Assembly (NCBI GenBank): GCA_964531745.1
Contig: CAZHFX010000004.1
Coordinates: 1 to 44,509 of the forward strand
Reading direction: 5' to 3'
DNA: 44,509 bases
DNA from: an uncultured Gammaproteobacteria bacterium
GTDB taxonomy: Bacteria; Patescibacteriota; Patescibacteriia; Magasanikbacterales; GWA2-37-8
A model generated the notes under the pieces. The model searched no databases. It was not told the origin of the DNA and worked only from the letters and a program-made list of their open reading frames with translations. Position 1 is the first letter of the stretch. Every line of letters starts with the position of its first letter. The position numbers and the translations under genes are program-made. Of this stretch, positions 43,149 through 44,202 are shown piece after piece.

Positions 43149-43175
43149 TTATCCACATGTGTGGAGTTATCCACA
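43149..43175 (+). promoter_or_regulatory. Two perfect consensus DnaA boxes (TTATCCACA) in direct orientation.
   Basis: TTATCCACA at 43149..43157 and 43167..43175, starting 1 nt after the era stop and ending 10 nt before the cassette -35. Confidence 0.7.
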
Positions 43176-43184
43176 TTTCTTCTC

Positions 43185-43213
43185 TTGACTGTCGCGCTAA
43201 AAAAGCGTAAACT
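43185..43213 (+). promoter_or_regulatory. Candidate promoter of the anomalous cassette: TTGACT, 17-nt spacer, TAAACT.
   Basis: TTGACT at 43185..43190 and TAAACT at 43208..43213 with an exact 17-nt spacer. It has the same -35 hexamer and spacing as the rplU promoter in this window. Confidence 0.55.
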
Positions 43214-43472
43214 TTTGACTATGTTCGTTTTATTTTTACTTTTCGGCTTATTTTAGCCAAAAAGCAAAGAAACGCCACGCACTTTACAACTTATCACACC
43301 CCAAATTAGCTCCAAAAACCATAAAAGACTTGGGATACAGGCACAATTAAACAAAATTGTTTCTGTACCCCAAGTCTTTAAAGAGTCGGGTTTCCACAGG
43401 GCTTTCGCCCTCCGATTCGCCTTGACCAAGGTTGGTTGAGGTAACTTTGTGGAAAAAAGGAGCAACACCGCC
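43214..43472 (+). ncRNA. Long structured 5' leader (candidate cis-regulatory RNA) of the GC3-extreme ORF.
   Basis: A 56-nt hairpin at 43324..43379 has arms AAAGACTTGGGATACAG and CTGTACCCCAAGTCTTT (16 of 17 paired) plus an inner ACAATT/AATTGT stem. A GGGC-TTTC-GCCC hairpin lies at 43399..43410. Long-range 8-bp pairing joins TTTCCACA (43391..43398) to TGTGGAAA (43448..43455), ending 1 nt before the SD AAGGAG (43457..43462). No Rfam family was recognised. Confidence 0.45.
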
Positions 43473-43994
43473 ATGAACACGCCCAAGACGCAGCCCAACT
43501 TCGTCAATCTGCGCACGAACCCCAGGTTCGCCGCCGTCATCGCCAGCGCCGTCGCCACCGCGAAGAACCAGGGCGCGAAGATCGACACCGGCGCCAAGGA
43601 GAACCGCTTCAAGGCCGCCACCGCGACCCGCGACTACGCCGGCCTGGAGCGCGCCGCCCTGCGCGTCATGAAGATGCGCGGCCAGAAGTACACCGACCAG
43701 AACTACCAGGCCGCCATCGCCGCGATCGCCGCGAACAAGCTCACCGACTCCGAGCAGTTCCGCGCGGCCATCGCCTTCGAGAGCGACGCCACCTCCATCC
43801 ACATCGCGACCCGCGGCATCGACGAGGTGCAGGCCGTGACCCCGCTCTTCCTGCTCGTGGAGATCGGCGACGCGTCGGTCAACTACGAGACCGGCGAGTG
43901 GAAGAAGAACGCGCGCTTCACGCGGCTCGGCAGCAAGCTGCGGGTCGTCGCCACGGCCGCGGCGCCGATCGTCGGCAAGTACCTGCTGAACTAG
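43473..43994 (+). CDS. Hypothetical 173-aa Ala-rich protein, compositionally foreign (GC3-extreme), family not recognised.
   Basis: ATG 43473 lies 10 nt after AAGGAG. All sense codons except one (AAT) end in G or C, which identifies the + frame as the coding frame. The track's GTG 43449 extension would run through the SD. There is no TM helix or signal peptide. Confidence 0.7.
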   Translation: MNTPKTQPNFVNLRTNPRFAAVIASAVATAKNQGAKIDTGAKENRFKAATATRDYAGLERAALRVMKMRGQKYTDQNYQAAIAAIAANKLTDSEQFRAAIAFESDATSIHIATRGIDEVQAVTPLFLLVEIGDASVNYETGEWKKNARFTRLGSKLRVVATAAAPIVGKYLLN

Positions 43995-44150
43995 GCGCGC
44001 CAACAGCGCAACGGGGTGTGGCTACACCAAGTAGCAGCTAATACAGTGCAAACGGTGCCGAGCCCAAGGCTCTCGCACCCCGTCTCATCTTGATCTTTAG
44101 CAATAAATCTCGCTCTTCATGAAGAGCAGGATAAAGGTCGCGAGTAGACG
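43995..44150 (+). ncRNA. Structured 3' region, GC-rich at its 5' end (candidate 3' UTR element or small RNA).
   Basis: The stem CGGGGTG (44012..44018) paired with CACCCCG (44076..44082) encloses the hairpin GCTAC-ACCAA-GTAGC (44021..44035). A competing hairpin GGTGC-c-GAGCC-CAA-GGCTC-tc-GCACC lies at 44054..44079. A perfect 16-nt palindrome GCTCTTCATGAAGAGC lies at 44112..44127. The strand is assumed from the cassette orientation. Confidence 0.4.
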
Positions 44151-44152
44151 AT

Positions 44153-44182
44153 AAAAAAACCCACCTCTTCGGTGGATTTTTT
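44153..44182. terminator. Bidirectional intrinsic terminator shared by the cassette (+) and the S41 peptidase gene (-).
   Basis: An A7 run, the stem CCACC/GGTGG (loop TCTTC) at 44161..44175, then T6 at 44177..44182. Confidence 0.65.
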
Positions 44183-44202
44183 ATTTATACTTTTTACCGT
44201 TA

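Follow-up and report, generated by a model that had tools for sequence, protein, structure and literature searches.

Why should one small gene take up a kilobase of its own, half of it non-coding, at a chromosomal junction that is nearly empty in related species? The question is raised by a cassette at positions 43149-44185 of contig CAZHFX010000004.1 (GenBank assembly GCA_964531745.1), whose positions 1 to 44,509, read on the forward strand, we refer to as the window. The cassette lies between the stop codon of era and that of ctpA, the gene for an S41 C-terminal processing peptidase, in an uncultivated groundwater lineage of Candidatus Magasanikbacteria (Patescibacteria/Candidate Phyla Radiation, CPR). 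A model that had read only the letters of the window (the sequence-only reading) described here two consensus DnaA boxes, a promoter with an architecture repeated elsewhere in the window, a hairpin-rich leader of about 250 nucleotides (nt), an AAGGAG Shine-Dalgarno (SD) site, a single open reading frame (ORF) of unusual composition, a structured tail of about 160 nt and a bidirectional terminator. All of these features are present where it had placed them (Table 1), and the share of the unit that it took to be non-coding, about half, computes to 50%.

The cassette is a self-sufficient single-gene transcription unit, with its own DnaA boxes, promoter, SD, ORF and terminator. Comparison with relatives suggests that its strongest constraints lie at the level of RNA and nucleotides, in covarying helices of the untranslated regions (UTRs) and in the near-absence of A and T from wobble positions. 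Our tentative answer, to which we give somewhat less than an even chance, is that the ORF is a lineage-specific accessory gene that entered the era/ctpA slot of one subclade and has been kept there since, with an mRNA built for stability and controlled translation.

An accessory unit in a variable slot

Relatives were collected by searching the Era protein against one genome per species, which gave 42 loci (cited here by handles such as L001). The close loci belong to Candidatus Magasanikbacteria, the best being a groundwater metagenome-assembled genome whose Era is 84% identical. In about twenty Magasanikbacteria species the era-ctpA gap measures only 15-150 nt and holds one bidirectional terminator and no DnaA box, which agrees with the proposal that the unit had been inserted between the two convergent genes. 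The cassette is present in seven lineages, each with an Era at least 81% identical to that of the window: the window species; L001; L003; L002 together with L064, from the same sample; L005; L063; and L069/L070, whose contigs end within the leader. It is absent from species at ~80-82% Era identity (L006, L007, L065, L071, L072 and L075). Because it occurs in seven lineages and the slot is empty or otherwise occupied in their relatives, the cassette is an accessory unit of one subclade in a variable slot, showing the presence and absence at a fixed chromosomal position among close relatives by which accessory genes are recognised.

The slot has other tenants. Unrelated orphan genes sit between era and ctpA in L009, L016, L018, L020, L028, L031, L044 and L065-L068, and no Pfam family was found for the slot orphans of other species. 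The era/ctpA junction is a general cargo slot, or hotspot, for unrelated orphan genes in Magasanikbacteria. Several of these cargoes have a G+C content at third codon positions (GC3) above that of their own genome, reaching 0.83 in L044 (a locus of 41% GC) and 0.65 in L020 (42% GC).

The unit holds a single ORF of no known family and no integrase, transposase or recombinase, and no flanking repeat is conserved across lineages. The sole flanking repeat, a T-rich direct repeat of 16 nt (43228-43243 and 44179-44194, 94% identical) that brackets most of the unit, is of low complexity and absent from L001 and L003; it is probably a chance occurrence and not a target-site duplication. As the sequence-only reading had remarked, no integrase, reverse transcriptase or toxin gene stands beside the unit, whose neighbours are era, L9, pyrG and ctpA (for reverse transcriptase this statement covers the neighbours, the window not having been scanned protein by protein for one). 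We also considered a diversity-generating retroelement (DGR) or retron and rejected both: the window contains no second copy of any cassette part and no Rfam retron RNA, and the neighbours are those just named. The terminator shared with ctpA is probably the ancestral terminator of the slot, because empty slots contain just such a terminator.

Mis-assembly, which had been named as one way in which the unit might prove spurious, is ruled out by a sequence identical to the cassette in ten independent assemblies (L053-L062; ENA, JGI and Logan) and by diverged orthologues in relatives. For the window's species and two relatives, contigs often do break off within the cassette (L055-L062, L064, L069, L070), and of the 17 contigs with an identical Era 9 fall below 2 kb; possible causes are reduced coverage across the GC-rich ORF and heterogeneity among strains.

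Wobble positions restricted to G and C

The ORF has a GC content of 68% in a window of 49.5%. By codon position its GC is 0.59, 0.46 and 0.994, against about 0.57, 0.37 and 0.51-0.60 in era, L9, pyrG and ctpA, so that the composition earlier described as unlike the rest of the window comes down specifically to a near-complete exclusion of A and T from wobble positions. No other genuine ORF of at least 80 amino acids (aa) in the 44.5 kb has a GC3 of at least 0.88. The rule extends to relatives: across the six ORF homologues GC3 is 0.97-1.00, and in L005 and L063 not one codon ends in A/T.

Our comparisons of ORF and UTRs rest on five to six cassette sequences, and changes at wobble positions were calibrated against era from the same genomes. 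Third positions of the ORF differ by 8-37% between homologues, nearly always through an exchange of C and G. G/C third positions have an A/T counterpart in the paired genome in 0-1.2% of cases in the ORF, against 16-33% in era (ten pairs, Fisher p 1e-13 to 1e-36), and it is this difference that indicates active maintenance of wobble G/C, by selection and across species.

The codons that result are those the genome otherwise avoids. Lysine is written AAG (12:0) and glutamate GAG (8:0) in the window ORF, and G-ending codons for Lys, Glu and Gln prevail 166:0 in the family; the genes for Era, EF4, L21 and L9 favour AAA over AAG by ~4:1 to 10:1 and also prefer GAA. Translational optimisation toward the native codon preference can be discarded, since the ribosomal-protein genes of the genome prefer the opposite codons. 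The window contains no tRNA gene. At the level of the mRNA, the ORF has 11.5% U and a single run of three or more A/U, compared with 55 such runs in era. A specific fold within the ORF was likewise rejected, the minimum free energy (MFE) being equal to that of synonymous and codon-order shuffles in five homologues (z -1.6 to +1.4).

Conserved structure in leader and tail

Transcription probably starts near 43221, as judged from the promoter, which gives a leader of about 252 nt up to the ATG at 43473. At 41% GC, this leader has an MFE of -83.7 kcal/mol, against -52.3 ± 4.0 in shuffles (z -7.8), and the tail of about 166 nt (43995-44160) folds with z -4.9, in keeping with the hairpin-rich leader and structured tail described before. 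The sequence-only reading had staked its RNA component on conservation of the non-coding parts in relatives. Leader and tail are in fact 82-91% identical between genomes that differ by 43-47% at era third positions, and in L005 they remain 83-90% identical despite an unrecognisable ORF. Compensatory changes occur in the 5' hairpin, the long hairpin, P2, P3 and T3 (Table 1) and are suggestive of selection on the UTR helices.

The 5' stem-loop overlaps a Phe/Leu-rich mini-ORF with four Phe and four Leu in 11 codons, whose ATG is kept in 6/6 leaders and absent from L063. Its substitutions (L to S; L/S/F) keep the hairpin paired and alter the peptide non-conservatively; because the same UA-to-CG changes that preserve pairs are L-to-S/F replacements, selection seems to act on the RNA and not on the peptide. 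Between this stem-loop and the long hairpin, which L063 also lacks, runs an unpaired linker that resembles a Rho-utilisation site or a single-strand binding platform.

The proximal domain, three helices and a pseudoknot ending just ahead of the SD, is the best-defined element of the leader: 99.4% of its cells pair, compared with 37-54% when the partners are slid. The SD itself lies outside any conserved helix. AGGAG is kept in 5/6 sequences, and L063 has GAGGAG at the same place, shifted in the alignment. A covariance model of the domain matched the six cassettes and found no further copy in 433 kb comprising the window and 40 related loci.

L063 also offers a natural leader deletion. At its positions 3380-3400 one DnaA box and TTGACT are fused to UUAAAGAGUCGGG, with about 210 nt removed; its ORF is probably co-transcribed with era.

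In the tail, a GC-rich hairpin directly after the stop codon beats shuffles in 2/6 sequences (L003 z -3.6, L002 z -4.2; the others z +0.02 to -1.5). The core that follows is nearly invariant over about 65 nt in six sequences and consequently shows little covariation; an alternative pairing, GGGGUG:CACCCC, is possible within it. T3 has two compensatory pairs (CG to GC in L063; AU to GC in L005), and its loop contains a palindromic insert of 26 nt (44107-44132) found in the window and absent from all other homologues. This insert shares TCATGAAGA with the ORF segment 43658-43674, which encodes the invariant VMKMR motif, and is 88% complementary over 17 nt. Cyclisation of leader and tail through CACACCCC and GGGGUGUG was tried as a candidate and rejected: L063 has retained the tail motif although it has no leader motif, and no covariation is seen in a second candidate helix.

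None of this RNA belongs to a described family. The window had no Rfam 15 match at gathering thresholds, a comparison that had been proposed for the leader and tail, and at E values up to 10 it gave only sub-threshold chance matches, mostly on the terminator; scans of JGI metagenomes and IMG/VR for the leader and tail motifs returned chance seeds only. As to the suggestion of a protein plus a cis- or trans-acting RNA system, the conserved RNA stands, and nothing points to action in trans or to a joint system, all conserved RNA lying on the transcript of the ORF. Ordinary roles in cis (mRNA stability, translation control) explain it.

DnaA boxes and promoter

Both DnaA boxes are perfect, as reported, and they fall within a direct repeat of 12 nt, AGTTATCCACAT; the chance expectation for perfect boxes in the whole window is about 0.3. 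The only other perfect box of the window is at 22947-22955 (minus strand), between the minus-strand genes 22369-22878 and 22971-24314. Box 1 has at most one mismatch in 5/7 cassette lineages. L001 and L003 have box 2, L005 and L063 do not, and the number of boxes across lineages runs 2, 2, 2, 1, 1 and then degenerate.

The promoter architecture recurs in the window, as had been pointed out; its sole other occurrence is at 13858-13886 on the minus strand, and 100 shuffles yielded no match to the pattern. Both hexamers persist in L001, L003, L005 and L069, and L002 keeps the -10 only, its contig beginning within the -35. DnaA boxes and promoter belong to the cassette. They do not make it an oriC, a candidate we rejected because there are only two boxes and the cumulative GC skew falls monotonically across the locus without a switch; the AT-rich stretch that might have served as an unwinding element is the covarying RNA hairpin.

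A fast-evolving protein of one clade

The SD at the correct spacing from the ATG, in-frame insertions and deletions (6, 12 and 3 nt), conserved termini (M(N/R)T... and ...(Y/F)(L/V)N*) and long invariant motifs such as RDYAGLERAA and MKMRG identify the ORF as a real gene, and it is open in six homologues. Alternative frames, seen in the window, L005 and L063, can be set aside as by-products of the wobble rule: they are stop-free because G/C at every third base bars stops in one frame per strand. The antisense ORF of the window would encode a product of only 10 kinds of amino acid, and its start is not conserved. Such frames do mislead annotation. In L063 an antisense frame of 208 aa (3466-4092, minus strand) is annotated in place of the 171-aa gene, and in L002, where the start codon reads ATA, a 217-aa product (173-826, plus strand) is annotated for that reason. 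Since gene callers choose the stop-free antisense frame, the family is under-represented in protein databases.

The protein is basic (K+R minus D+E of +4 to +9), contains 15-19% Ala and is predicted to be all-helical. AlphaFold2 gave poor models (pLDDT 43.7 with four sequences, 54.5 with five), and a Foldseek search of the PDB found no fold match (best E 0.67, uninformative). No conserved residues of catalytic type were seen. In 6/6 homologues the most hydrophobic 11 residues (Kyte-Doolittle (KD) 1.85-2.55) fall at positions 16-30, with K/R ahead and ATA|K or TGA|K behind; the n-region would be unusually long, at 15-18 aa.

Searches with the protein against Pfam, PHROGs, NCBIfam and PADLOC gave no match, and the possibility that it belonged to a well-known housekeeping family found no support in these or in the PDB. 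A search of 5.8 billion protein clusters returned three relatives, all syntenic. Profile searches with a hidden Markov model (HMM) across 1.84 billion representatives recovered the known relatives and one weak match (P0005) to FG-GAP-like repeats (E 2.8e-7 summed over six repeats), which we judged spurious and repeat-driven. PDB sequences, phage genomes (by tblastn) and species-representative genomes yielded no homologue outside the clade, nor did any relative from outside it turn up among about 15 billion proteins.

Change in the protein far outpaces that in its UTRs: homologues are 57-82% identical where Era is 80-90% identical. In L005 the protein is only 22-27% identical to all others, although its Era is 83-88% identical; BLAST missed this homologue and hhalign found it at E 0.0017. 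L005 resembles the others in its termini and length, in several positions of the motifs and in its signal-like segment, and its GC3 is 1.00. Where the first two bases of a four-fold codon are conserved, L005 has a different third base in 12-24% of cases, compared with 10-33% among the other homologues, and codon positions 1 and 2 differ by 50-59%. An ancient allele is not supported, the synonymous C/G divergence at conserved four-fold codons being no larger than among the others; the pattern looks like a burst of amino-acid change, read from a weak alignment.

Weighing the explanations

In the account that we tentatively prefer, an accessory gene with a stable and translationally controlled mRNA, a strong promoter would be tuned by DnaA on the two boxes, whose centres lie ~50 and ~70 nt upstream of the putative start. 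The stem-loop at the start of the transcript, and the helices that lock most of the leader, would make the mRNA long-lived. The part traversed by ribosomes cannot hold a fixed fold, and there A/U would have been stripped at every synonymous site, removing AU-rich single-stranded sites used by RNase Y/E-type enzymes. RNase Y cuts AU-rich single-stranded RNA near structures, at sites similar to RNase E sites, and stem-loops that stabilise from the 5' end are described for the ompA, papA, aprE and ermC transcripts (PMC3997798). Downstream, the post-stop hairpin, three more helices and the terminator would block 3' exonucleases; upstream, the pseudoknotted three-helix domain, 1 nt before the SD, would set or gate the initiation of translation. 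Helices suited to 5' stabilisation and 3' protection are present, conserved and covarying, with the 5' end placed from the promoter. The product would be a small, basic, helical protein, probably exported, and its rapid divergence suggests an extracellular or a partner- or host-facing role.

Several observations weigh against this account. An unpaired, A/C-rich stretch of 49 nt in the leader is unexpected if everything were designed for protection. L063 lacks the mini-ORF, the -10 hexamer and both of the hairpins that come first in the leader, and retains the proximal domain, the ORF, G/C wobble and the tail; the distal leader is therefore dispensable. L064 and L069 have degenerate DnaA boxes. 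Isolated A/T between G/C is also depleted at wobble positions (5/265 against 44/257 in era), so that avoidance of A/U runs is not the whole cause, and the real target may be overall GC or decoding. With five to six sequences the statistics of covariation are weak, which makes it suggestive rather than conclusive. The abundance and stability of the transcript are judged from its anatomy, and the signal-peptide-like N-terminus is a candidate proposed by hydropathy.

One alternative turns the relation of RNA and protein around: the transcript (leader domain and/or tail core, possibly released as a stable RNA) would be functional and the ORF a translated but inert spacer. The UTRs and wobble G/C are indeed the most conserved parts, the tail core is nearly invariant, and L005 has changed 78% of its amino acids with GC3 at 1.00 and the frame intact. 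The identity shared by 5/6 homologues, together with their long invariant motifs, is however typical of a folded protein under purifying selection, and the RNA has no Rfam match, no second copy or target in the 433 kb and no sign of processing. We regard this alternative as unlikely.

Rather improbable in our estimate is a new kind of device at the RNA level in which the transcript and the act of its translation are selected and the amino acids are not, the cause being either restricted or foreign decoding or an A/U-directed RNase. In a possible decoding version, the ORF would need a restricted or foreign pool of tRNAs and ribosomes; in its boldest form, also possible, decoding would take place in a high-GC host cell, to which a presumably episymbiotic CPR bacterium would deliver an armoured mRNA or gene. 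In a possible RNase version, an A/U-directed RNase would silence all else, and this mRNA would have to withstand it.

A conflict system (defence against phages, a toxin-antitoxin (TA)-like pair or an immunity protein), with a structured RNA that would control or neutralise the protein in the manner of type III TA, would match the layout of promoter, structured RNA and an ORF of ~170 aa. It would also suit a hotspot slot with other orphan genes and the fast, uneven evolution of the protein, and an A/U-specific RNase, should the mRNA encode one, would be unable to cut this message, which is free of A/U runs. What speaks against it is the lack of any PADLOC, Pfam, PHROG or NCBIfam match, of a tandem repeat array in the leader, of a terminator between RNA and ORF, and of a partner gene or phage association in our searches; the protein, moreover, is predicted to be all-helical and shows neither conserved catalytic-type residues nor a fold match. 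We find a conflict system quite doubtful.

No more credible to us is an origin of the wobble pattern in GC-biased gene conversion, with alleles exchanged through conserved flanks in a recombination hotspot. The slot is a hotspot, other cargoes have raised GC3 (L044 and L020, above), and identities are discordant: L063 is the closest by Era (88%) yet only 60% identical by ORF, with L005 at 22%. But the jump in GC starts and stops essentially at the coding region, leaving the AT-rich UTRs (the leader at 41% GC) and the adjoining ends of era and ctpA unenriched; GC at first codon positions (GC1) in the ORF equals that of host genes; and for about 170 independent sites to come close to fixation in six lineages, the bias would have to be exceptionally strong.

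The idea of a passive relic, recently transferred from a high-GC donor and with UTRs conserved only through youth, is largely refuted and in our view very unlikely. It has in its favour a codon set (GCC, GGC, CGC, CTG, AAG, GAG) that is the one of high-GC bacteria, a slot that gathers foreign-looking genes and a similar divergence of leader, ORF and tail. Neutral decay would nevertheless have brought A/T to 16-33% of third positions, as in era, where the ORF orthologues, 11-37% diverged at these positions, differ almost only by exchange of C and G; the compensatory changes in the helices indicate selection on the UTRs; no donor-like composition is seen on either side of the GC-rich block; and no high-GC genome represented among the ~15 billion proteins holds a homologue.

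Hardly any more weight can be given to a leader-peptide attenuator, in which the mini-ORF would sense charged tRNA and decide the expression of the main ORF. The mini-ORF begins 7 nt past the -10, contains four to five Phe codons in 11, enough to qualify as regulatory codons, overlaps the first hairpin and persists in the leaders. Yet no terminator-like site exists on the plus strand of 43221-43472, the long hairpin being followed by UCUUUAAAG and not by a U-tract; the substitutions fit the hairpin rather than the peptide; the Phe_leader model of Rfam matches nothing but the terminator, at 25 bits where 55 are required; and L063 has no mini-ORF, nor has the main ORF a link to Phe.

That the GC-rich block is not sense-coding at all, being a structured non-coding RNA or the complement of a true antisense gene, is scarcely tenable: differences spread almost evenly over the three codon positions and gene callers did take the antisense frame in L063, but the strict 3-nt periodicity, in-frame indels, SD, ATG and conserved ends, the lack of excess structure in the ORF and an antisense frame that is stop-free by construction, uses few amino acids and lacks a conserved start all stand against it.

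Relation to known systems

As the sequence-only reading had held, the unit falls outside the described defence, TA, retron and mobile-element classes; judged by the defining features examined, it is likewise no DGR, riboswitch, attenuator or origin of a described family. Its closest working likeness may be to genes with 5' stabilisers and 3' protective stem-loops, with a siting like that of an orphan in a permissive convergent junction. With the stabilised mRNAs of E. coli ompA and papA, B. subtilis aprE, and ermC it shares a single strongly promoted gene, a 5' stem-loop, a long leader, stable helices between stop codon and terminator and a large non-coding share. The cry genes of Bacillus thuringiensis combine a STAB-SD with a 3' 'retroregulator'. 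No stabilised mRNA, however, is known to join these traits with a coding region from which A/U has been cleared at synonymous sites, contrary to the codon preference of its genome, and the cassette UTRs, unlike theirs, are conserved in sequence well beyond what generic hairpins need; the likeness is one of anatomy alone.

Type III TA systems (ToxIN, AbiQ/antiQ, CptIN) resemble the cassette in their one promoter, structured RNA and ORF of ~170 aa, solitary in a variable region. The cassette leader lacks their tandem repeats and internal terminator: over 43100-44300 the program TRF found only a 9-nt repeat of 2.8 copies, inside the ORF, and the leader has no direct repeats apart from the DnaA boxes. 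The protein shows no similarity to ToxN or AbiQ (Pfam, PADLOC) and is predicted to be helical, not a Kid/MazF-like barrel, and the cassette has a conserved 3' RNA as well.

The proximal domain, compact at about 75 nt, with three helices and a pseudoknot by the SD, recalls pseudoknot translational riboswitches and protein-binding leaders (SAM-II, preQ1-II, ribosomal-protein leaders), but it has no Rfam match up to E 10, and the SD is outside the conserved helix. A general metabolite sensor is made less plausible by the occurrence of the motif only with this ORF, in a handful of genomes.

Promoters outside the origin are controlled by DnaA at sda, dnaA and ywlC of B. subtilis and at nrdAB of E. 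coli. The cassette is like these in having putative consensus boxes just upstream of a sigma-70-type promoter, away from the origin; the number of its boxes varies among lineages, and the likeness is one of sequence alone. Orphan genes in genomic islets at convergent junctions are similar in presence and absence, atypical composition and lack of homologues; the cassette has no mobility genes, and its atypical composition is maintained and not ameliorating. Codon-restricted expression is exemplified by bldA and TTA in Streptomyces. There a single rare codon is concerned; here one gene is written in codons that the genome avoids (AAG, GAG and CAG only), every codon is affected, and translation of the ORF could be tied to particular tRNAs.

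What appears new is the protein family, the RNA motifs and, above all, a near-total exclusion of A/T from wobble positions kept through speciation against the genome's codon preference, with UTRs more conserved than the protein. We know of no described precedent for this last combination, and literature searches turned up none. If true, this would be an unusually clean natural case of synonymous-site selection other than for native codon preference, with about 170 wobble positions held at G/C through several speciation events in a genome of 50% GC. To our knowledge almost nothing is known of gene regulation in the CPR, and the gene would provide a recodable test object for how coding composition and UTR architecture jointly set mRNA lifetime and translation there. 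The era/ctpA junction, for its part, is marked as a variable slot that collects orphans, some of them possibly host-interaction factors. The narrow distribution, a handful of uncultivated groundwater genomes, limits the immediate weight of these points; the wobble result is strong.

Coordinates and window composition

Table 1. Features of the cassette and its surroundings (window coordinates) and position of other cargoes of the slot (coordinates of the respective locus).
Feature	Coordinates	Strand	Remarks
era	42270-43148	+	stop codon directly before the cassette
DnaA box 1 (TTATCCACA)	43149-43157	+	exact match; adjoins era stop codon
DnaA box 2 (TTATCCACA)	43167-43175	+	exact match; oriented like box 1 and starting 18 nt after its start
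sigma-70-type promoter, TTGACT-17-TAAACT	43185-43213	+	one further occurrence in the window
mini-ORF, MFVLFLLFGLF*	43221-43256	+	ATG 7 nt past the -10 hexamer; would be leaderless
5' stem-loop	43226-43274	+	RNAalifold, 20 pairs, 2 with compensatory UA-to-CG; also in single-sequence MFE fold
unpaired linker	43275-43323	+	C/A-rich, nearly G-free; sequence largely conserved
long hairpin, 25-nt arms	43324-43379	+	invariant base, variable tip; compensatory GC to AU and UA to CG (RNAalifold)
proximal leader domain	43383-43455	+	three helices and pseudoknot; comparison of six sequences
P1 of proximal domain	43383-43389 : 43412-43418	+	
P2 of proximal domain	43398-43402 : 43407-43411	+	compensatory AU to CG
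P3 of proximal domain	43419-43427 : 43434-43442	+	compensatory AU/GC/UA
pseudoknot of proximal domain	43391-43397 (UUUCCAC) : 43449-43455 (GUGGAAA)	+	ends 1 nt before SD
Shine-Dalgarno AAGGAG	43457-43462	+	10 nt upstream of ATG 43473
173-codon ORF	43473-43994	+	G/C at 173/174 third positions, TAG stop included
antisense 218-codon ORF	43347-44003	-	artefact; its first codon positions face the sense wobble G/C; GC1 0.90
GC-rich hairpin right after stop codon	43995-44009	+	predicted in all six sequences; sequence different in each
conserved tail core	44015-44079	+	hairpin 44015-44028, invariant unpaired stretch, 11-bp hairpin 44054-44079
tail helix T3	44081-44099 : 44132-44150 (span 44081-44150)	+	97.5% of cells paired; loop variable
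bidirectional intrinsic terminator, shared with ctpA	44151-44185	both	stem 44161-44175, A-run before, T-run after
ctpA (S41 C-terminal processing peptidase)	ends 44203	-	convergent with era
slot cargo, L009	1010-2025		
slot cargo, L016	6013-6574		
slot cargo, L018	6846-7719		
slot cargo, L020	3935-5071		
slot cargo, L028	6873-9569		
slot cargo, L031	6843-8412		
slot cargo, L044	6867-7943		
slot cargo, L065	3394-4966		

Away from the cassette, the window has two stretches of lower GC, 1-2000 and 20001-22000, at ~41-42% each; the rest is uniform at ~50%. The second of these stretches holds short ORFs only.

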